The translations under genes were made by a program, and so were the position numbers. The notes beneath the pieces are model-generated. The model worked only from the letters and a program-made list of their open reading frames with translations. It made no database searches and was not told the origin of the DNA. From an uncultured Eubacteriales bacterium (lineage in GTDB: Bacteria; Acidobacteriota; Aminicenantia; Aminicenantales; UBA8522): 10,854 nt of DNA. The stretch lies in assembly GCA_964445305.1 (NCBI GenBank), contig CAYUKK010000176.1, positions 1-10,854 on the forward strand. Direction: 5' to 3'. Every line of letters starts with the position of its first letter. Position 1 is the stretch's first letter. This document shows, one piece after another, positions 1,401 through 10,854 of this stretch.

Positions 1401-2360
1401 ATGAAATTTATAGAAACGATGGAAATAATAAAAAATTTACCCATAGAAATCGCCCTTCTCGCCTTCCGCTCCCTGTTTTTTGTCCTTCCCCGCCGTGTCT
1501 GCCTTTGTCTCGGCCAAATAGCCGGCCACCTCTTCTTCTCCTTTGACCTCCGTCACCGCCGCATTGCCCTGGCCAACATGGAAAAAGCCTTCGGCCTGGA
1601 GCTTCCCCCCTCCAAACGCTCCCGGCTTGTCCGTCAATCTTTCCTCCATTTCGGCCAAATGCTGGCCGATATCCTCAAGTGGTCATCCCTGAGTCAAGAA
1701 AAGAGAGAAGAACTGCTTCGAGTCGAGGGCGCCGAGAACATCCACCAAGCTTTGCGTCAGGGTCAGGGCATCCTTCTCTTCTCCGCTCACTTTGGCAACT
1801 GGGAAGTAGCCAGTGAGGCCCTGGCCAAGCTGGCTCCCCTTCATGTCGTGGCCCGTCCTCTCGACAGCCGCACCGCCGAAAAGGAGCTCCTCCGCTTCCG
1901 GTCAAGCCTCGGCGCAAGAATCATTTACAAGCACCAGGCGGCAAAGCCCATCCTCCAGGCTCTTCGCCGAAACGAAATGGTGGCCATCCTCATCGACCAG
2001 AATGTTCTCCGCAGTCAGGCCGTCTTCGTCGATTTCTTTGGCCTCCCTGCCGCCACCACTCCCAGCCTGGCCTCTTTCCATCTTCGAAGCCGTGCCCCCC
2101 TCCTCCCGGTTTTCTGCTATCCCACCTCTTCCCTCTCCTACCTCGTCAAGATCTTCCCCCCGCTCGATTTCAAGCCGAGCGGCGATTGGTCGGCCGACGT
2201 ATTGAAAATCACCCAGCATTCGACTAAGATGGTCGAAGCGGAGATCCGCCGCCGACCCGAGCTCTGGTTCTGGTTCCACGACCGCTGGAAAACGAGACCG
2301 CGGTCCGAGGTCGCCCCGTCCAAGACGCTGACGCCCGATATCCAAGGAAATAGAGCTTGA
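1401..2360 (+). CDS. lpxL: Lipid A biosynthesis acyltransferase, LpxL/HtrB (Kdo2-lipid IVA lauroyl/myristoyl acyltransferase) family
   Basis: 319-aa ORF starting 30 bp after lpxK. Hydrophobic N-terminal helix. SAHFGNWE matches the H-x4-E catalytic dyad region of the Lip_A_acyltrans family. Whether it is LpxL, LpxM or LpxP cannot be told by eye. Confidence 0.7.
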   Translation: MKFIETMEIIKNLPIEIALLAFRSLFFVLPRRVCLCLGQIAGHLFFSFDLRHRRIALANMEKAFGLELPPSKRSRLVRQSFLHFGQMLADILKWSSLSQEKREELLRVEGAENIHQALRQGQGILLFSAHFGNWEVASEALAKLAPLHVVARPLDSRTAEKELLRFRSSLGARIIYKHQAAKPILQALRRNEMVAILIDQNVLRSQAVFVDFFGLPAATTPSLASFHLRSRAPLLPVFCYPTSSLSYLVKIFPPLDFKPSGDWSADVLKITQHSTKMVEAEIRRRPELWFWFHDRWKTRPRSEVAPSKTLTPDIQGNRA

Positions 2361-2368
2361 GGCAGAGG

Positions 2369-3115
2369 ATGAGAGAAAAACGTGCCCCTGACGAATTAAG
2401 GCCCGTCAAGATTCAGCTTGATTATCTCGATTACGCCCACGGCTCGGCCTTCCTCGAAATCGGCAAGACGCGAGTCATCGCCGCCGCGACCGTCGACGAC
2501 AAAGTTCCGCCCTTCCTCAAGGGTATGGGCACGGGATGGGTGACGGCCGAATACGAAATGCTCCCCTGCTCGACCGAAAAAAGGACCATCCGCGAGAGAA
2601 CCCAGGGACGGATCTCGGGCCGAAGCCAGGAAATCCAGCGCCTCATCGGGCGGGCCCTCCGCGCCGCTACCGACCTCGATTCCCTGGGCGAGCGAACGGT
2701 CATCATCGACTGCGACGTCATCCAGGCCGACGGTGGCACCCGAGTCGCCTCCGTCACCGCCGGTTGCGTCGCTCTGGCCCTCGCCTTGAAAAAACTCCTC
2801 GATGAAAAGGTCATCGACCAGATGCCCCTTCGCCATCTCGTCTGTGGGGTGAGTGTCGGCATTGTCGACGGCCAGCCACTCCTCGACCTTGACTACAGCG
2901 AGGATTCCCAGGCTGCGCTCGATATGAACGTTGTCGAAACTGACGATGGGCATCTCGTTGAGGTCCAGGCCTCAGCCGAGAAAGCGCCGTTCTCCCGGAA
3001 GGACTTGGCATCGCTCCTCCGCCTTGCCGACAAGGGCATCAAGGAACTCATCCAAATCCAGAAGGCCGCTCTCAAGAAAAAAAGCCTCCTCTTCATGGCC
3101 TACGGCCGAAGTTGA
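2369..3115 (+). CDS. rph: Ribonuclease PH (tRNA nucleotidyltransferase)
   Basis: Near-colinear match to E. coli RNase PH throughout: DELRPVKI.., [57 protein letters not shown]....DL.Y.EDS.A..DMNVV. The true start is taken as ATG 2369 (GAGG 7 nt upstream) rather than the TTG 2357 reported by the ORF track. This leaves an 8-bp gap after the lpxL-family stop. Confidence 0.93.
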
Positions 3116-3134: not shown

Positions 3135-4088
3135 ATGCGAAGGATTCTTGTCACCGGCGGGGCCGGCTTTCTCGGCAGCCACCTCTGCGAATACCTTCTC
3201 CGGGCGGGCGCGGACGTTGTCTGCGTCGATAACTTTTTTTCCGGGAGCAAGGACAACATCCGTCACCTCCTCGACCATCCCTACTTTGAGCTCATCCGCC
3301 ACGACGTCATCCACCCCCTCTTCCTCGAGGTAGACCAGATTTACCACCTCGCCTGCCCTGCTTCGCCCATCCACTACCAGCATAACCCCATCAAGACGGT
3401 CAAGACCAATGTCATGGGGACGATCAACATGCTCGGCCTGGCCAAGCGGATCAAGGCGCGCATCCTGCTCGCCTCTTCCTCGGAGGTTTACGGCGACGCC
3501 GAAGTCCATCCCCAGCCCGAAACCTACTGGGGAAATGTCAACCCCATCGGCCCCCGCAGCTGCTACGACGAAGGCAAGCGCGTGGCCGAGACACTGATGA
3601 TGGATTACTCCCGGCAGAACAATGTCGACATCCGCATCGCCCGCATCTTCAACACCTACGGCCCCCGCATGGCCATAAACGACGGCCGCGTCGTCAGCAA
3701 CTTCATTGTCCAGGCTCTTCGGGGCGAAAACCTGACTATCTATGGCGACGGCAAACAGACGCGCTCTTTCTGCTACGTCTCTGACCTCATCGAGGCGCTG
3801 GTGAAACTCATGAATAGCGAAGCAATCCGGACGCCGGTCAACCTGGGCAATCCCGTTGAATGCAGCGTTCTCGAGTTGGCCGAAATCATCCTCCGGCTCA
3901 CCCAAAGTTCATCGAGAATCGATTTCCGCCCCTTGCCCGCTGACGACCCGGCACGGCGTTGTCCCGACATTACGCTCGCCCGAGAAAAGCTGGGCTGGGA
4001 GCCCCGCGTGAGCCTGGAGGAAGGGCTTCAGAAGACGATCGCCTACTTCGAAGAAAAGCTTGAAATCAGGAACGGGCAAGGCCCGTAA
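3135..4088 (+). CDS. uxs: UDP-glucuronate decarboxylase (UDP-xylose synthase), extended-SDR NAD-dependent epimerase/dehydratase
   Basis: Start ATG 3135 ([16 protein letters not shown], Rossmann GxxGxxG) with AAGGAGGG RBS 5-12 nt upstream. The catalytic Y-x3-K is present as SCYDEGKR. Long stretches typical of UXS/ArnA-C-terminal decarboxylases are seen ([53 protein letters not shown]). The ORF-track N-extension from 2931 overlaps rph and is treated as an artefact. Confidence 0.85.
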
Positions 4089-4136
4089 GAATAGCTGGGC
4101 AAGACTTAGAAATGAGAAATAAAGGTCGAGATAAAT

Positions 4137-4168
4137 TTAGATAACGGGAATGCGAAGAAATAAAAAAT
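4137..4168 (+). promoter_or_regulatory. Candidate sigma70-like promoter in the AT-rich spacer upstream of the GT2 gene (TTAGAT-N18-TAAAAAAT)
   Basis: -35-like TTAGAT at 4137-4142 and an A/T-rich -10-like TAAAAA(AT) at 4161-4168. The surrounding 80 bp are strongly AT-rich relative to the ~60% GC context. A motif match only. Confidence 0.25.
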
Positions 4169-4173
4169 AAAGA

Positions 4174-4221
4174 GATGGATGGATAGATAGATGGATGGCC
4201 GGATGGATGGCCGGATGGATA
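4174..4221. repeat. Imperfect tetranucleotide tandem repeat, 12 units of GATR/GCCG (GATG GATG GATA GATA GATG GATG GCCG GATG GATG GCCG GATG GATA). It contains a 12-bp unit GATGGATGGCCG repeated 2.7x.
   Basis: Read directly from the sequence. 10 of 12 units are GAT[G/A]. It lies between the putative promoter and the GT2 start codon. Confidence 0.9.
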
Positions 4222-4294
4222 AACGAAGAATTTCTTGGCCAACGAAGAAAAAGACGGAGGACCAACAAAGGAAGAGGAAGAAACGGGGCGCCGG

Positions 4295-4981
4295 GTGAAG
4301 CTTTCGATCATTATTCCCGTTTACAATGAAGTTCGGACGATAGAAGAAATCCTCCGCCGCGTTCAATCGGTCGACGTCGGCCTGGACAAGGAGATCGTTG
4401 TCGTCGACGACGGCTCGACCGACGGCACCCGTGCCATTCTCGAGCGGCTCGCCTCGCCCGCCGTCAAAATCCTCTTCCACGCGAAGAATCAGGGCAAGGG
4501 CGCTGCCCTCCACACCGGTTTTGCGGCCGCCACCGGCGATATCCTCCTTGTTCAGGACGCCGACCTCGAGTACGACCCAAGAGAGTATCCCAAGCTCCTT
4601 GAGCCCATCCTGGACGGCCGGGCTGATGCCGTCTATGGCAGCCGTTTCCTCGGCGGTCCCCACCGCGTCCTCTTCTTCTGGCACTACGTCGGCAACCGCA
4701 TCATCACGACCCTCTCCAACATGCTGTCCAACCTCAACCTCACGGACATGGAAACATGCTACAAGGTCTTCAAAAGAGACATCATCCGCCAGATCAGCCT
4801 CAAGTCGAAGCGGTTCGGGTTTGAGCCGGAAATTACCCAAAAGCTGGCCAAGCTGAAATGCCGGGTCTATGAAGTCCCCATCTCTTACTCTGGCCGCGAT
4901 TATGCCGAGGGGAAAAAAATCACCTGGAAAGATGGCCTGGCCGCTATCTTCCACATCCTTCGCTTCCGCTTCTTCAATTGA
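4295..4981 (+). CDS. Family-2 glycosyltransferase, polyprenyl-phosphate sugar synthase type (DPM1/ArnC/GtrB-like)
   Basis: KLSIIIPVYNE..., VVVDDGSTDGT and QDADLEYDP (DxD) form the typical GT-A N-terminus of dolichyl/undecaprenyl-phosphate glycosyltransferases. Product is ~230 aa with no C-terminal TM segments, i.e. the short soluble DPM1-like form. The start is ambiguous: GTG 4295 (giving MKLSIIIP, with G-rich RBS-like sequence upstream) or the TTG at 4235 used by the ORF track. Confidence 0.8.
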   Translation: MKLSIIIPVYNEVRTIEEILRRVQSVDVGLDKEIVVVDDGSTDGTRAILERLASPAVKILFHAKNQGKGAALHTGFAAATGDILLVQDADLEYDPREYPKLLEPILDGRADAVYGSRFLGGPHRVLFFWHYVGNRIITTLSNMLSNLNLTDMETCYKVFKRDIIRQISLKSKRFGFEPEITQKLAKLKCRVYEVPISYSGRDYAEGKKITWKDGLAAIFHILRFRFFN

Positions 4982-5231: not shown

Positions 5232-5260
5232 TTGACTTTCCTTTGGCCATAAATATATTA
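5232..5260 (+). promoter_or_regulatory. Strong sigma70-like promoter for the flotillin gene: TTGACT-N16-TATATT
   Basis: -35 TTGACT at 5232-5237 (5/6 consensus) and -10 TATATT at 5254-5259 (5/6), with a 16-bp spacer, in an AT-rich patch. The predicted ~80-nt 5'UTR contains a GTTTCG-caat-CGAAAC stem-loop (5283-5298) and a GGAGGAGG RBS (5333-5340) 5 nt before the ATG at 5346. Confidence 0.5.
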
Positions 5261-5345: not shown

Positions 5346-6755
5346 ATGAGCCTTGTCTCCTGGCTTATCATCATCGGCATCATCGTCGTCCTCCTGGCAC
5401 TCATCATCATCGTTCTGGCCATCCAGTACCGCAAGGTCGGGCCTAACGAAGTCTTGATTATCTCGGGCGGCCGGAAGAGGACGGTCACTGCTCCGGACGG
5501 GACCAAAGTCAAGGTCGGCTACCGCTACCGCCTTGGCGGCGGCACATTTGTCATCCCCTTTGTCGAAACCGTCTACACCCTCCCCCTCGACGTCGTCACC
5601 CTGAACATCCGCACCCCTGAAGTCCTGACCCACAGCGGTGTGCCCATCATGGCTGAGGCCACGGCTCAGGTCAAAATCGATTCCTCGGACTCAGCCATCC
5701 GGCTGGCAGCCGAACAGTTCCTGGGCACGGGAAAAGAGGGTATTCGGGATGTCTCCCTCAACGTCCTCGAGGGGAAGATGCGGGAAGTTATCGGCACCAT
5801 GACCGTCGAGGAGATTTACCGCGGCCGTCATGAGTTCAATTCTCGCGTCGCTGAGGCCATCCGTGACGATTTCGCCCGCATGGGCTTGGTCATGCTCTCC
5901 TTCACCCTCAAGGACATCAGCGATACCCAGGGCTACCTGGATTCCCTGAGCAAGCCGCAAATCGCTGCTGCCAAGAGGGACGCCGCCATCGCTGAGGCCG
6001 AAACCGAGAAAGAAGCAGTCATCAAGTCCTCCCAGGCGCGCAAAGAGGCAGAGGTGGCCCGCCTCGCCGCTGAAGCCCTTATCGCCAAGGCCCAATGGGA
6101 AAACGAGGCCAAAAAAGCAGAATCCCAGGTCGCCGTCAACCAGAAGAAAGCCCAGGCCGATTTCTCCTACGAGCTCGAACGGTTCCGCCTCAGCCAGCAG
6201 ATCAAGAAAGAAGAGGCCAAGATGAAGGCCATCGAGAAGGAGGAGGCCATCAAGATCGAAGAGCTCGAAATCGCCCGGCGCGAGAAAGAGCTCGAATCGA
6301 GCGTCATCAAGCCGGCCGACGCCCGCAAGTACCAGATCAAGGCCGAAGCAGAAGCCGAGGAATTCCGCATCCAGGCCGAAGCCAAAGGTAAAGCTGAGGC
6401 TCTCCGCCTCGAGGGTGAAACCGAAGCCGAACTCTTGAAAAAGAAGGGCATGGCCGAGGCCGAGGCGATGCTGAAGAAGGCCCAGGCCTGGGAAAAGTAC
6501 AATCAGGCCGCCATCCTGGAAATGTACTTCCATATCCTTCCCGAGCTGGCCAAAGCCGTCTCCGAGCCGCTCTCCAAAGTGGATAAAATCGTCGTCGTCG
6601 GTGGCGGCGACAAGAGTCTCGGCACGACCAAGATCACGGCCCAGGTGGCTGAAATCCTTTCCCAGATGCCCGAGGTCGTCAAGTCCTTGACCGGAGTTGA
6701 CCTCAAGAAATACCTGAAGGAAAAGCTGACGCCGGAAGAAAAAGAAGAGAAATAG
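5346..6755 (+). CDS. floT: Flotillin-like SPFH/band-7 membrane scaffold protein (FloT/YuaG-type)
   Basis: N-terminal TM helix [20 protein letters not shown] followed by [15 protein letters not shown] (flotillin signature entry into the SPFH domain). It has a long C-terminal coiled coil with E/A/K-rich flotillin repeats ([43 protein letters not shown]). 469 aa. Confidence 0.85.
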
Positions 6756-6785: not shown

Positions 6786-9131
6786 ATGATTTCAGAGAAA
6801 GCGAACCAAATCGGCACATCCCCCACCCTCAAGATTACGGCCAAGGCCAAGGCCATGAAGGCCGAGGGGATTGACATCATCGATTTGAGCGTCGGCGAAC
6901 CGGATTTCCCCACGCCCGAGAATGCAAAGGCGGCCGGGATTCGGGCCATCCAGCAGAATTTCACCAAGTATACGGAAAACGAAGGTATCCCGGCGCTCAA
7001 GAAAGCCATCATCGCCAGGATGAAGGAGGATTATGGCCTCGCCTATGAGATGAACGAGGTCATCGTCTCGACGGGCGCTAAAAGCTCGCTCTTCCTCCTC
7101 ATCCAGGCCCTGGTTAATGACGGGGAGGAAGTTATCATCCCCGCCCCCTACTGGGTGACTTACCCTCAGGCAGTCGTGCTGGCCAAAGGCAAGCCCGTTA
7201 TCATCCCGACCAAGGAGGAAAATGGCTTTCTTCTTACGCCCGAGGAGCTCAAGGCGGCCATTTCCCCGGCGACCAAAGCCCTCATCCTCAACAATCCCTC
7301 CAACCCAACCGGCGCTGCCTATTCCAGGGCTCAGCTCGAAGCTTTGGTTGATGTCATTCGCGGCGAGGACCTTTATGTTATCGCCGATGAAATCTACGCC
7401 AAGCTCATTTTCGATGGCTTCGAGTTTGTGAGCTTCCCCTCCCTCGGCGAGGACATCAAAGCCAAGACCATCCTTATCAGCGGCGTCTCCAAGTCCTACT
7501 CCATGACCGGCTGGCGGATAGGGTTTGCTCTGGGGCCGGCCGAAATCATCAACGCCATGGCTAAAATCCAGAGCCATTCAACCTCCAACCCTTGCTCCAT
7601 CTCCCAGCAAGCCAGCCTGGAAGCTCTGACCGGGCCGCAGCATGAGGTCGCCCGCATGGCCGCTGAATTCCAGCGCCGGCGCAACTACTGCCTGATGCGG
7701 CTCAACGCCATCCCCAATATCTCCTGTTTCAAGCCCCGGGGCGCTTTCTACCTCTTCCCCAATTTCTCGGCTTATTATGAAAAAGAGGCGGGCGGTGTTC
7801 TCATCCGGAATTCCTACGGCCTGGCCTACTACCTGCTCAAGGAAGCGAAAGTGGCCATCGTCCCGGGCGATTCTTTTGGCGCGGATAATTACATCCGTCT
7901 TTCCTACGCCACATCGATGGAGAACCTGGAGAAAGGGATGGACCGGATTATCGAGGCCGTCTCCAAGCTCAAGACGCCGAAGAAAATCAAGCGGGTCGCC
8001 CTCAACAACACCATCACTCGAGTGAAGAGAGCTGTGCCCGTTGACGCATCCCTGCCGACCAAGATGCGCGATGCTCTCGTCGCCGAGATGGAGGGACATC
8101 TTCCCGTCGAGAACTACTACGAATGGAACGCCAACATCGCGGGAATCGTCGTCCAGCTTCGAACGAATGTTGCGCACCTCTATGATTTCTGGGTCGAGAA
8201 CTGGTTTCCGGCCCAGCTCGAAGCGGATATCGAGCCCCACGGCATCATTTATGCTGTGGATGGAGTCGCCGGTCGGGAGCCGAGAGCTTTTTACAACTCC
8301 GAGACAAAGACAGGGGTCCTCGTCAACACGGATAACTACGGCCCGTTGCGGAGCCTCGCCCTTGGTCTGGTCATGGATGTCACGGAAAGGCTCTACGGCG
8401 CCTGCGCTATCCGCGGCATGGCCGCCGCTGTCGAGGACAACGGCCGAGGCCTTATCCTCGTCGGACCGCCTGGAACGCGGAAGACCGAGCTCTTCTTCGA
8501 GCTCCTCGAGGATAAGCGGTTCAAAATCCAGGCTAACGAAATCATTCTTGTCCGGGCCGCGGGCGGAAAGGCGCAAGCGGAATGCGTCGAGAGAAAGCTT
8601 TATATGCCGACGAATACGGTCGAGAACTTCTCGCGCCTGGCGCCTCTTTTTGACGCGAGCAAGTGCGAAAACGTTGTCATCCACAAGGACGGATGCCAGG
8701 ATGAGGCTTGCCTCAGGGGCGAAGATTGCCGCCTCGACCGGGGGTCTCCCTTCTGCTACAAGGCCTCCAAAGAAGCGCATGCCATGCTCGACCCCAACTG
8801 GATTGGGGGCAAAAGTGCCCACGCCAGACGGACGACCCTGAGCTGGATATTCTTTCTCCGCTATGACCCGTCATCGCCGGCTGCTGTCCGCCTGGAGAAG
8901 GAGGAAGCGCTGCGCATCCTTGAATCGGGCGAAGCGTTAGGTTTGAAGAAAGCCCTCTCTCCGGCCAAACCACAGCCTTACTACAACCCCCACCTTTTGG
9001 TGACGACGGAGGAACGGCTGGAGCTCCAGAAAGCGTTCTTCAGCCGATTGCTGGATATCGTCCCCTGCTATCTGTTCAACAGCGGCGTGGCCGGCGCCGA
9101 GACAATAAAGCAACTGACCGCGGGCGAATAG
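6786..9131 (+). CDS. Fusion protein of 781 aa. Residues ~1-400 are a class-I PLP-dependent aspartate (aspartate/prephenate) aminotransferase. Residues ~400-781 are a domain resembling the HPr kinase/phosphorylase C-terminal P-loop kinase fold.
   Basis: N-terminal half: NNPSNPTG, the SGVSKSYSMTGWRIG PLP-lysine motif (Lys236, nt 7491-7493) and a C-terminal IRLSYA.S region, all typical of the AspAT-Ib subgroup. C-terminal half: GRGLILVGPPGTRKTELFFELLEDKRFKIQANEIILV aligns in spacing to HprK [36 protein letters not shown]. A later EEALRILESGEA matches HprK EETLRILDTEI. The reading frame is continuous with no stop, and no RBS precedes the internal Met427, so a genuine fusion is favoured. RBS AAGGAGAGG precedes ATG 6786, which lies 30 bp after the flotillin stop. 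Confidence 0.8.
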   Translation: MISEKANQIGTSPTLKITAKAKAMKAEGIDIIDLSVGEPDFPTPENAKAAGIRAIQQNFTKYTENEGIPALKKAIIARMKEDYGLAYEMNEVIVSTGAKSSLFLLIQALVNDGEEVIIPAPYWVTYPQAVVLAKGKPVIIPTKEENGFLLTPEELKAAISPATKALILNNPSNPTGAAYSRAQLEALVDVIRGEDLYVIADEIYAKLIFDGFEFVSFPSLGEDIKAKTILISGVSKSYSMTGWRIGFALGPAEIINAMAKIQSHSTSNPCSISQQASLEALTGPQHEVARMAAEFQRRRNYCLMRLNAIPNISCFKPRGAFYLFPNFSAYYEKEAGGVLIRNSYGLAYYLLKEAKVAIVPGDSFGADNYIRLSYATSMENLEKGMDRIIEAVSKLKTPKKIKRVALNNTITRVKRAVPVDASLPTKMRDALVAEMEGHLPVENYYEWNANIAGIVVQLRTNVAHLYDFWVENWFPAQLEADIEPHGIIYAVDGVAGREPRAFYNSETKTGVLVNTDNYGPLRSLALGLVMDVTERLYGACAIRGMAAAVEDNGRGLILVGPPGTRKTELFFELLEDKRFKIQANEIILVRAAGGKAQAECVERKLYMPTNTVENFSRLAPLFDASKCENVVIHKDGCQDEACLRGEDCRLDRGSPFCYKASKEAHAMLDPNWIGGKSAHARRTTLSWIFFLRYDPSSPAAVRLEKEEALRILESGEALGLKKALSPAKPQPYYNPHLLVTTEERLELQKAFFSRLLDIVPCYLFNSGVAGAETIKQLTAGE

Positions 9132-9141
9132 GCTGAGCCTC

Positions 9142-9178
9142 GTCTTGCCAGCGGCAGCGACCCGATCTCTCTTTTTTC
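9142..9178 (+). terminator. Weak candidate intrinsic terminator after the fusion gene
   Basis: Imperfect GC hairpin (GUC-UUGCC-agc-GGCAG-c-GAC, 9142-9161) is followed about 10 nt later by CTCTCTTTTTTCT (9166-9178). The stem is bulged and the T-run is distal, so the call is weak. Confidence 0.2.
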
Positions 9179-9362
9179 TACCCCTTCATCGAGGTCATAG
9201 CAGACCTGGATCAAATTACGAACTTCAAAATCTTTTCTGACCACAAAATATACCTCTCTCCCTTGACTATTTTTCCAGAAAAATACTTCTCCTCCCTTCA
9301 GCCCTCTCCTTAACAGATCCAGGAAAACAAGATTTTCACATAGCCATTCTTTCAAAATAGTC

Positions 9363-9938
9363 CTAATTAGATTTATCCGAAAAGAGGCGGTTCTCGAGGG
9401 CTTCAGCCAGAAGGTGAAGGAGGAGAAGATGGACCTCCTGGACGCGAGGTGTGGAAGTCGAGGGAACATCGAGAAGATAATCGGATAGGGAGGCGAGCCT
9501 ACCACCGCCCTGGCCGGTCATGGCCACCGTCAGCATCCCTTTCTGGCGGGCCGCTTTGAGGCCCTCGACGATGTTGACTGAGGTCCCGCTTGTCGAAAGA
9601 GCGAGAGCAATATCCCCTTTGTCGCCGAGCGCCTCAATCTGCCGGCTGAAAACGTAATCATAAGACGAATCATTGGCCACAGAGGTAAGAGTCGACGTAT
9701 CAGTCGTCAGGGCGATCGCCCGCATGGGTTGTCTTATGCGGAGGAATTTGTTGACGAGTTCCGCGGCAAAGTGCTGGGCCTCAGCCGCGCTCCCGCCGTT
9801 GCCGAAAACGAGGATTTTCCGGCCCTCCCCAAGGGCCCTGGCGACGGCCTCGATCATGACCTCAAAGAGGTCACTCTTCTGCTCGAAAAAATTCTTGAGG
9901 ATAGCATGAATATCAACCTGAATGTATCCATATTTCAT
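9363..9938 (-). CDS. gmhA: Phosphoheptose isomerase (D-sedoheptulose-7-phosphate isomerase), SIS domain; LPS core heptose pathway
   Basis: 191 aa. [20 protein letters not shown] matches GmhA [47 protein letters not shown] matches [27 protein letters not shown]. The QEVHLLLLH region matches QEIHIKVIH. RBS AAGGAG lies 6 nt upstream of the ATG on the − strand. Confidence 0.9.
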   Translation of the reverse strand: [191 protein letters not shown]

Positions 9939-9974
9939 CGCCTGCTCCTTAGGTCTCGCTTATTTCCTTTGACC

Positions 9975-10003
9975 ATTATAACCTATTCCCACACATCCCG
10001 GAT
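9975..10003 (-). promoter_or_regulatory. Candidate gmhA promoter: perfect -10 TATAAT (− strand, + coordinates 9975-9980) with a poor -35
   Basis: The − strand reads GGTTATAATGG about 37 nt upstream of the gmhA ATG. No good TTGACA-like hexamer sits 16-18 bp upstream (ATCCGG/TGATCC). A hexamer match only. Confidence 0.3.
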
Positions 10004-10042
10004 CATTATTTCCTCTCGCTATCTCCACGGGAGTACTTCCAT

Positions 10043-10069
10043 GAAGAAAAGCTATGTCCTTTTTTCTTC
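10043..10069. other. 8-bp inverted repeat GAAGAAAA-(11 nt)-TTTTCTTC in the plsC-family/gmhA intergenic region
   Basis: Arms at 10043-10050 and 10062-10069, read directly. It is located between the acyltransferase stop (10168) and the gmhA promoter candidate. It could be an operator, or the terminator hairpin of the upstream − strand gene. No U-tract follows on the − strand. Confidence 0.3.
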
Positions 10070-10167
10070 GTGGCATTCCTCCTTCAAGAGGCAAATTTCA
10101 GGACTCTGAGCTTTCACCGTCAAAATGGATTCGGCTTTAAGGCCGTCCCGGCGAGTGCTTCCTTCGG

Positions 10168-10854
10168 TCAATTGCGAAGTCCTGATTCAATAGCGGCCTT
10201 GACTCTTTCGATCAACACCGACATGTTGCTCTGGTCATATCCCTCGACCGGAATGGGCGGATGGAAAAGCACATGGATGAGCCCCCGTCGTGTTGAAAAC
10301 CTTCCCCGCGGCATGAGTTCATACGTTCCCCTGATGGTGACGGGCACAATCGGCGTCCGGCTTTCCAGAGCGAGAAAAAAGCCGCCGCGCTTGAAAGCCT
10401 GGAGGCGGCCATCCCGGCTCCTCGTTCCCTCGGGAAAAATAAGGAAGGAATAGCGGCGGCGGCGCATGAGCTGGATGGCTTTGTCAATACTCCGCTTGCC
10501 CCCCCACATCTTCTTCCTGTCGACAGGAATGAAGCCGACGTATTTCATGCCCACGCCGATGATCGGAATCCGGAACACTTCTTTTTTGAGGATGACCCGG
10601 ATGGGTCGGGGGATGAGCCAGAAGAGCAGGGGTCCGTCGAGGAAGCTCAAATGGTTGGCCATGAAGACATAAGGAGCTCGGCGATCCAATCGCTCCCGGC
10701 CAGAGACCTCGACCTTGAGCCCGAGAATACGGCAACCGAGGCTCATCGCCCACTTGGCAATCCGGAGGAGAGGGTCGCGAACGCCGAACGGCCAGAAGAG
10801 GAGGAGCAAGAGGAAAAGAAATATCGTCAGGAGAGCATAGATGAGGAGGAGAAT
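10168..10854 (-). CDS. 1-acyl-sn-glycerol-3-phosphate acyltransferase (PlsC/LPLAT family). The 5' end lies outside the window.
   Basis: Two LPLAT-family acyltransferase motifs are present: FMANHLSFLDGPLL (H-x4-D block) and FPEGTRSRDG. The ORF track's TTG at 10809 is not a real start. Translating the − strand to the window edge continues without a stop through a hydrophobic segment (ILLLIYALLTIFLFLLLLFWPF), so the gene is truncated by the window. Confidence 0.75.
   Translation of the reverse strand: MLLLIYALLTIFLFLLLLLFWPFGVRDPLLRIAKWAMSLGCRILGLKVEVSGRERLDRRAPYVFMANHLSFLDGPLLFWLIPRPIRVILKKEVFRIPIIGVGMKYVGFIPVDRKKMWGGKRSIDKAIQLMRRRRYSFLIFPEGTRSRDGRLQAFKRGGFFLALESRTPIVPVTIRGTYELMPRGRFSTRRGLIHVLFHPPIPVEGYDQSNMSVLIERVKAAIESGLRN

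Follow-up and report, generated by a model that had tools for sequence, protein, structure and literature searches.

The 10,854-nt stretch of DNA analysed here (contig CAYUKK010000176.1, from an uncultured bacterium of the Aminicenantia; hereafter the window) carries on its + strand a gene for a UDP-xylose synthase-type UDP-glucuronate decarboxylase (uxs, 3135–4088, 317 aa), which is followed by a gene for a short family 2 glycosyltransferase (GT2, 4295–4981, 228 aa). Both lie downstream of lipid A genes, and the question raised by this locus is which sugar the pair handles and where that sugar is delivered. An initial annotation of the window had proposed that undecaprenyl-phosphate-xylose (or another pentose) might be formed by an Arn-like pathway and decorate lipid A or the inner core of the lipopolysaccharide (LPS) in the periplasm. 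According to the present analysis the two enzymes in all likelihood produce UDP-xylose and attach a sugar to a lipid carrier in the membrane, for decoration of the cell envelope. For the more specific model, in which UDP-xylose feeds a three-component carrier-lipid glycosylation route and the pair is its cytoplasmic half, the chances are judged to be about even. The observations of the initial annotation were confirmed in part: both genes are real and the coordinates and gene calls of the pair were correct, the rph gene was missed and gmhA was placed too close. Its interpretation stood for the decarboxylase, the class of the GT2 and the link between the two genes, and did not stand for the lipid A/LPS-core target; its suggestion to look for a GT-C transferase in the flanks led to a candidate nearby.

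In the favoured model, the UDP-xylose synthase (UXS) would convert UDP-glucuronate into UDP-xylose, the family being assigned by homology and the product being deduced from the family. The helix-free, DPM1-like GT2 would act on the inner face of the cytoplasmic membrane; from a UDP-sugar, most likely UDP-xylose, it would transfer the sugar to a polyprenyl (undecaprenyl) phosphate. The lipid-linked sugar would then be flipped by a separate flippase, and a GT-C transferase, for which a 782-aa YfhO-family protein is the best candidate, would move it to an envelope acceptor on the periplasmic side. That xylose would be the donor sugar of the GT2 is suggested by the linkage of the two genes.

The assignment of the uxs product to the UXS-type extended short-chain dehydrogenase/reductase (SDR) family is solid by sequence comparison. 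The best PDB matches of the protein were the structures of human UDP-glucuronate decarboxylase 1 (UXS1; 2b69/4gll; E 2e-133, 447 bits, residues 2–316), with 200 identical residues out of 316 (63%); the next family reached only 152 bits, and the ArnA decarboxylase domains about 104. The NAD-binding GxxGxxG, S/T-x-E (SSSEVYG), YDEGK and QTR (QTRSF) motifs aligned with residues of UXS1 that we take to be the catalytic ones; Ser replaces Thr in the second motif and the Glu is kept. The likeness to human UXS1 and to bacterial UDP-xylose synthases (e.g., rhizobial Uxs1) thus covers the full length of the protein with conservation of the catalytic residues, no difference was detected at the sequence level, and the window SDR is an ordinary family member. 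A ribosome-binding-site-like GGAGGG precedes the uxs ATG. The score and identity to UXS1 bear out the UDP-glucuronate decarboxylase of the initial annotation, and dispose of the ArnA-type relative that it had given as an alternative: the protein is a single 317-aa SDR domain devoid of a formyltransferase domain, it scored 107 bits with the ArnA model NF005998 (cutoff 777), and it was also far under the cutoff of the Ralstonia-type bifunctional model. Since the protein belongs to the UXS family, its product is expected to be UDP-xylose.

The second protein contains a GT2 domain (PF00535, E 1e-39). Its best PDB sequence matches were dolichyl-phosphate mannose synthase (DPMS) of Pyrococcus (5mlz, E 5e-25, residues 19–242, including the juxtamembrane region) and ArnC (E 7e-19), followed more weakly by the soluble GT2 enzyme GpgS (E ~6e-12) and by GtrB (E 2e-10). 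When its AlphaFold2 model was compared with the PDB by Foldseek, the top 25 hits were all ArnC, DPMS or GtrB, and GpgS came far lower; the short DPM1/ArnC-like GT2 of the initial annotation is therefore upheld by sequence and by fold. The best NCBIfam models were AglJ (125 bits, cutoff 325), ArnC (76 bits, cutoff 529) and PpgS (73 bits, cutoff 370). Since these scores are well below the curated cutoffs, the protein is, by sequence, an orthologue of none of the three. AglJ is a dolichyl-phosphate hexosyltransferase. The DAD motif at residues 88–90, D151 and R201/K207/K208 are invariant among the homologues, nearly all of which, when closely related, are 228 aa long; the true start is therefore probably GTG 4295 and not TTG 4235, from which the reading frame is open. 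No membrane helix was predicted in the protein (highest 19-residue Kyte–Doolittle mean, 1.0), so that the C-terminal membrane helices of ArnC, GtrB and archaeal DPMS are missing from it. Human DPM1 and PpgS-type enzymes likewise have no membrane helices.

Relatives of this GT2 were collected by a search of 1.84 billion representative sequences, which gave 3065 representative clusters at E <= 1e-30. Members of the family, which share about 60% identity across phyla, were found in over 600 species genomes and are distributed over Planctomycetota, Verrucomicrobiota, Acidobacteriota, Gemmatimonadota, Elusimicrobiota, Cyanobacteria, Actinomycetota, Anaerolineales and Candidatus Gribaldobacteria, the last three according to the labels of metagenome-assembled genomes (MAGs). 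Among 78 long representatives at 50–67% identity, 38 were fused to an S-adenosylmethionine (SAM) methyltransferase domain, six to GtrA_DPMS_TM and three to PMT_2, a GT-C domain; the methyltransferase domain of the fused proteins (representatives P0121–P0270) is of the class I SAM type. The genomic surroundings were examined in 80 loci carrying a GT2-family gene in organisms outside the Aminicenantes block. A polytopic open reading frame (ORF; at least 330 aa and at least six hydrophobic segments) was present within 3 kb of the GT2-family gene in 37 of these loci, and PMT_2 was matched by 16 of the 55 polytopic ORFs, several of which start less than 100 bp away on the same strand. At the level of the family, then, the GT2 is associated with both GtrA-type flippases and GT-C transferases, and these fusions and neighbours, together with the modelled fold, support its placement in the polyprenyl-phosphate glycosyltransferase class (DPM1/ArnC/GtrB).

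These data also bear on a different role, in which the GT2 is not a carrier-lipid enzyme and transfers its sugar directly, in the cytoplasm, to an LPS-core or lipid A intermediate (e.g., the 4′-phosphate made by LpxK) or, in the manner of GpgS, to a soluble phosphorylated metabolite. Such a role would agree with the lack of transmembrane helices, with the presence of soluble GpgS among the PDB matches and with the position of the gene in a run that begins with lpxK and lpxL. It is nevertheless considered very unlikely, given that the 25 closest folds are all polyprenyl-phosphate enzymes, that the stretch aligned with DPMS takes in the juxtamembrane region and ends at residue 242, and that relatives of the protein are fused to GtrA and GT-C domains and often encoded beside GT-C genes; the lack of helices is shared by human DPM1.

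The carrier-lipid route fed by UDP-xylose is also supported by the linkage of uxs and GT2. In each of the nine Aminicenantes lineages sampled, uxs adjoins the GT2 gene within the order lpxK-lpxL-rph-uxs-GT2, with GT2 identities of 76–100%. The uxs stop and the GT2 start overlap as ATGA in loci L003, L007, L090 and L093, and a 4-bp overlap is also present in L009 and L091. In the window the two genes are separated by a purine-rich spacer (4089–4294) with a (GATG)n / GATGGATGGCCG tandem repeat at 4174–4220, reported by Tandem Repeats Finder as 11.8 copies of period 4 and 2.6 copies of period 12. This spacer and its repeat are missing from L003, L007, L090 and L093, where the ATGA overlap is found instead, and it therefore looks like a lineage-specific insertion that uncoupled the two genes.

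The linkage recurs in other phyla. In Planctomycetota, a trio of UXS, a DUF4037/NTP_transf_2-like protein (283–294 aa) and GT2 is kept under three different sets of flanking genes (L050, 5691–8340; L094, 8163–10741; L097, 6726–9375; the last two representing the pairs L094/095 and L096/097). In Gemmatimonadota the order SDR-UGDH-UXS-GT2 was found (L031, the UXS being detected by tblastn), in Candidatus Gribaldobacteria the order UXS-GT4-GT2 followed by a GtrA-domain protein (L067), and in Acidobacteria a UXS-like decarboxylase followed by the GT2 and by a protein with nine hydrophobic segments (L061). Because of this recurrence, true UXS is the commonest nucleotide-sugar enzyme adjoining the GT2 family. 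By a rough estimate, in which one uxs per ~3000 genes is assumed, the probability of at least three such adjacencies arising by chance in 80 loci is P < 1e-3. A link between uxs and GT2 that exceeds local chance, is conserved and often translationally coupled in Aminicenantes, and recurs in three other phyla with unrelated flanks is thus supported.

Immediately after the trio in L094, a gene for a UbiA-family prenyltransferase was noted (11044–11985, − strand), which is not present in the near-identical L095. UbiA-type enzymes make polyprenyl-phosphoribose in known pentofuranose pathways, and the position of this gene may be a coincidence or may reflect a second carrier-lipid route.

The third component would be a transferase on the outer side of the membrane. 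The window encodes no polytopic membrane protein, in agreement with the initial annotation, which had seen no GT-C there and had pointed to the flanking genome as the place to look for one; most related contigs likewise have none less than 10 kb from the GT2. Contig L098, retrieved by means of the exact GmhA product of the window, is 98.75% identical to window positions 9255–10854 and extends 2.66 kb further. It carries a complete 232-aa PlsC and, 77 bp past the plsC start and divergent from it, a gene for a 782-aa YfhO-family protein, which would correspond to window positions ~10943–13291 (+ strand), beyond the right end of the window and some 6 kb downstream from the GT2. At least eight hydrophobic segments were recognised in the protein. 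In its AlphaFold2 model (mean predicted local distance difference test score, pLDDT, 77; predicted template modelling score, pTM, 0.80) a C-terminal beta-rich domain of ~250 residues (~490–740) is followed by a final helix, and the top 12 Foldseek hits were all GT-C enzymes, among them AftD (6e-6), ArnT (5f15, 5e-5), STT3 and AftA. Orthologues lie in the same neighbourhood in L093 and L101, at 7.3 and 8.6 kb from the GT2, respectively. Homologues form more than 100 clusters, several of them named YfhO family protein from Aminicenantes, in which the family is widespread. A predicted GT-C transferase is thus encoded near the pair in the window lineage and in two related loci.

The characterised precedent for this arrangement is found in Bacillus and Staphylococcus, in which the GT2 enzyme CsbB makes undecaprenyl-phosphate (C55-P)-GlcNAc for use by the GT-C YfhO, with the gene of the flippase GtcA located elsewhere (PMC5836110, PMC8035078); in B. 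subtilis, CsbB and YfhO glycosylate lipoteichoic acid (PMC5836110, PMC8035078). In the CsbB/GtcA/YfhO systems of Bacillus subtilis, Staphylococcus aureus and Listeria, a C55-P-sugar made by a GT2 is transferred outside the membrane by a YfhO-family GT-C, and the flippase gene is unlinked. The window locus resembles them in having a YfhO-family gene near its GT2 gene. It differs from them in several respects: those systems use UDP-GlcNAc, serve Gram-positive teichoic acids and have csbB directly beside yfhO, whereas the window organism has lipid A genes, its GT2 and YfhO-family genes are ~6 kb apart, and its YfhO match is marginal. In the PDB comparison, GtrB, a GT2 with membrane helices, was matched by the window GT2 at only E 2e-10.

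In L101 (GCA_052744935.1, Aminicenantales), the region past plsC (8436–14714) contains three genes. The product of the first is polytopic, 522 aa long and without a Pfam match, and has a PLDDAW motif near its N terminus; the second, whose start overlaps the end of the first by 4 bp, is that of the YfhO-family GT-C candidate; the third, on the opposite strand, encodes a 751-aa membrane-anchored protein that combines a sulfatase domain with some four hydrophobic segments at its N terminus, an arrangement like that of LtaS or OpgB. A YfhO-family gene beside an LtaS/OpgB-like sulfatase protein is unusual in a bacterium with lipid A genes. In L004, two genes following the GT2 were considered as flippases and rejected: the product of a 114-aa ORF is hydrophilic, and that of the other gene is LysE, of an amino-acid exporter family.

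A number of observations weigh against the proposed route, and they concern its last components as well as its donor. The Pfam matches of the 782-aa protein are partial and barely over the cutoffs (YfhO, 29.1 bits against 28.5; DUF6044, 27.8 against 27), and L003, L092 and L004 lack the gene at the equivalent position. As unrelated genes separate the GT2 and YfhO-family genes, their products can be regarded only as presumptive partners. Neither the window nor the Aminicenantes loci, up to a distance of 10 kb, yielded a GtrA- or SMR-type flippase, and the same was true of the ArnE/F-like flippase that the initial annotation had suggested looking for in the flanks. The AlphaFold2 model of the GT2 is moderately confident (pLDDT 72, and less than 50 over residues 118–153). 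With regard to the donor, no UXS lies nearby in about 76 of the 80 GT2-family loci (~95%), despite the ~60% identity across phyla, and one Aminicenantes locus (L010, GT2 identity 75%) has the GT2 with neither UXS nor lpx genes. Short SDR neighbours in L089 and L059, considered as UXS, were rejected as such and identified as RmlB and as a WbpP-like epimerase, the latter accompanied by a dehydrogenase. In view of the many loci devoid of UXS and of these other neighbours, the donor sugar of the family may not be xylose, or may not be uniform. Close relatives bear generic database names only, and no specificity signature could be derived, since the UXS-linked GT2s form no separate subgroup by pairwise identity.

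The observations on the donor lend themselves to another explanation, namely that the GT2 is a polyprenyl-phosphate glycosyltransferase using a common hexose donor (UDP-Glc, UDP-GlcNAc or GDP-Man) and that UXS is a mere neighbour feeding other, cytoplasmic glycosyltransferases. A family that is so conserved across many phyla and so seldom near UXS would agree with this, as would its heterogeneous neighbours (GT4s, methyltransferases, RmlB, WbpP-like epimerase) and the fact that the hexosyltransferase AglJ is the best-scoring curated model. A neighbour without functional connection does not readily account for the ATGA coupling of uxs and GT2 in several Aminicenantes lineages, for the UXS-X-GT2 arrangement kept independently in Planctomycetota while the flanks change, for the UGDH-UXS-GT2 order in Gemmatimonadota, or for a number of adjacencies that by the rough estimate above exceeds chance. 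A hexose donor is accordingly thought possible, though doubtful, and in that event the locus would encode an ordinary three-component glycosylation system. UDP-xylose remains the donor that we favour.

The acceptor is a separate matter. The earlier proposal of lipid A or the LPS inner core draws on the position of uxs and GT2 in one co-directional run with lpxK and the lpxL-family gene, with gmhA-like and plsC-like genes nearby and the order kept across Aminicenantes. It also gains from the YfhO-family protein, whose gene adjoins plsC and whose model has ArnT among its hits (5f15, E 5e-5). The adjacency that the initial annotation described is correct insofar as lpxK and the lpxL-family gene lie upstream on the same strand, and inexact insofar as rph intervenes between lpxL and uxs, as it does in every Aminicenantes locus sampled. 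Likewise, a GmhA-like SIS-domain gene is indeed present, 4.4 kb off on the opposite strand, past the flotillin and aminotransferase-fusion genes. The block from lpxK to plsC is a lineage-wide synteny that also includes rph, flotillin, the aminotransferase fusion and sometimes a phosphoenolpyruvate carboxykinase (PEPCK) gene, so that it marks no single pathway.

Outside that block the association with lipid A genes did not recur: homologues of LpxK, LpxL and GmhA were found in none of the 80 GT2-family loci (~10 kb, BLASTP E < 1e-10, a threshold that divergent homologues could escape). One Gribaldobacteria genome has the UXS-GT2 module, and members of the GT2 family were seen in MAGs of Actinomycetota and Anaerolineales; to our knowledge, Actinomycetota, Anaerolineales and Candidatus Gribaldobacteria have no LPS. 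Neither an orthologue of ArnT (GT83) nor ArnE/F was seen. The literature searched contained no report of xylose on lipid A and nothing relevant on UXS in connection with lipid A or on the LPS of Aminicenantes, and the characterised YfhO proteins act on teichoic acids, not on lipid A (PMC5836110). As the proposal draws on synteny only, the lpx link does not recur, and the module is present in lineages held to be free of LPS, decoration of lipid A or the LPS core in the Arn-like manner is considered unlikely. Lipid A or the LPS core would be one of several conceivable acceptors, the others being another glycolipid, a polymer or a protein. Still more doubtful is the most specific combination, in which the GT2 family as a whole is a UDP-xylose:polyprenyl-phosphate xylosyltransferase and, in Aminicenantes, the YfhO-family GT-C places its xylose on lipid A or the LPS core; this would amount to a new kind of lipid A/LPS decoration.

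The analogy with ArnA/ArnC/ArnT of E. coli and Salmonella is functional. In both cases a gene for a UDP-glucuronate-decarboxylating SDR lies beside a GT2 gene and a GT-C acts, or would act, in the periplasm; the Arn GT2 attaches a pentose derivative to undecaprenyl phosphate. ArnC ranks with the best hits of the window GT2 in both sequence and fold, and the fold hits of the YfhO-family protein include ArnT. The analogy does not extend to the components themselves. The window SDR is of the UXS type (447 bits with UXS1, ~104 with ArnA) and has no formyltransferase domain, no ArnB, ArnD or ArnE/F was found, the GT2 scored 76 bits against the ArnC cutoff of 529 and is without the C-terminal helices of ArnC, and the GT-C candidate belongs to the YfhO family and not to GT83, so that ArnT is wanting as well. 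DPMS (Pyrococcus 5mlz, human DPM1) provides the best PDB sequence match and the same fold; it uses GDP-mannose, the Pyrococcus enzyme has four membrane helices, and no DPM3-like anchor was identified at the window locus. The mycobacterial PpgS (Rv3631) is comparable in being a GT2 of ~230–240 aa that makes a polyprenyl-phosphate sugar for GT-Cs, and its model aligns with residues 25–239 of the window protein; PpgS uses UDP-GalNAc, and at 73 bits against a cutoff of 370 the window GT2 is not its orthologue. By analogy, then, the locus would work like the Arn, Gtr and CsbB/YfhO systems, as a member of no curated family tested, its single genes being ordinary superfamily members.

Lipid-linked xylose has a precedent in Citrobacter youngae O2, in which a lipid-linked xylofuranose donor is used by a GT-C (GT136) in periplasmic O-antigen modification (PMC11127046). 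In that organism, undecaprenyl-phosphate (Und-P)-xylofuranose is derived from phosphoribosyl pyrophosphate (PRPP) via Und-P-ribofuranose and an epimerase, and not from UDP-xylose and a GT2 (PMC11127046), so that the route proposed here would be biochemically different, presumably with the sugar in the pyranose form. Nothing relevant on polyprenyl- or undecaprenyl-phosphate xylose made from UDP-xylose was found in the literature searched, the Und-P-xylofuranose of Citrobacter being the only lipid-linked xylose encountered. If the GT2 uses UDP-xylose, there would be a second, nucleotide-sugar-dependent route to lipid-linked xylose beside the single one found, which starts from PRPP (PMC11127046), and its product would be a lipid-linked xylopyranose donor so far undescribed in bacteria. 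A function would also be provided for a GT2 family that is very large (at least 600 genomes, 3065 clusters) and so far uncharacterised. For the Aminicenantes, which are uncultured and widespread in sediments, it would mean a specific envelope modification by way of a YfhO-type transferase, of a family so far studied in the glycosylation of Gram-positive teichoic acids.

The names borne by close homologues assign the sequence to Candidatus Aminicenantes. Nine clear genes were annotated in the window, the first five of which, from lpxK to GT2, form one tight run on the + strand; the first three gaps measure 30, −4 and 19 bp, and the last, before the GT2, 146–206 bp. The first gene of the run is lpxK (339–1370; PF02606, E 9e-67; TIGR00682, 143 bits against a cutoff of 92). 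It is followed by a gene for an lpxL-family lipid A acyltransferase (1401–2360; PF03279, E 1e-58, 199 bits), for which all NCBIfam LpxL models were below cutoff, and by rph, encoding RNase PH (2357–3115; TIGR01966, 332 bits against 141.5). A sigma-70-like promoter match (TTGACT, 16-bp spacer, TATATT; 10/12) is located at 5232–5259 (+ strand), in the 364-bp gap before the flotillin gene (5346–6755, + strand), and suggests that the lpxK-to-GT2 transcription unit ends with the GT2 gene. No convincing terminator was found around the uxs-GT2 pair, and no RNA family was detected in the window by Rfam.

On the right-hand side of the window, the minus strand carries the gmhA-like SIS-domain gene (9363–9938; SIS_2, E 1.5e-25), the best NCBIfam matches of which were phosphoheptose isomerase models, below cutoff (TIGR00441, 183 bits, cutoff 209), and a plsC-like acyltransferase gene (10168–10854; PF01553, E 9e-33), the 5′ end of which lies outside the window, so that no database record corresponds to its exact truncated product. 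A 145-aa ORF (9068–9505, − strand) overlaps the 3′ end of gmhA and weakly matched the terminal part of DUF4143 (E 2e-4, short of the cutoff); it is probably the remnant of an ATPase gene, or spurious. Between flotillin and gmhA lies a + strand gene (6786–9131) for an aspartate aminotransferase (residues 1–396) fused to an uncharacterised C-terminal domain of ~380 aa, in which no Pfam or PDB match was found and a P-loop-like GPPGTRKT motif is present. This fusion (777–786 aa) is kept in all the Aminicenantes loci, often with a PEPCK_ATP gene after it.

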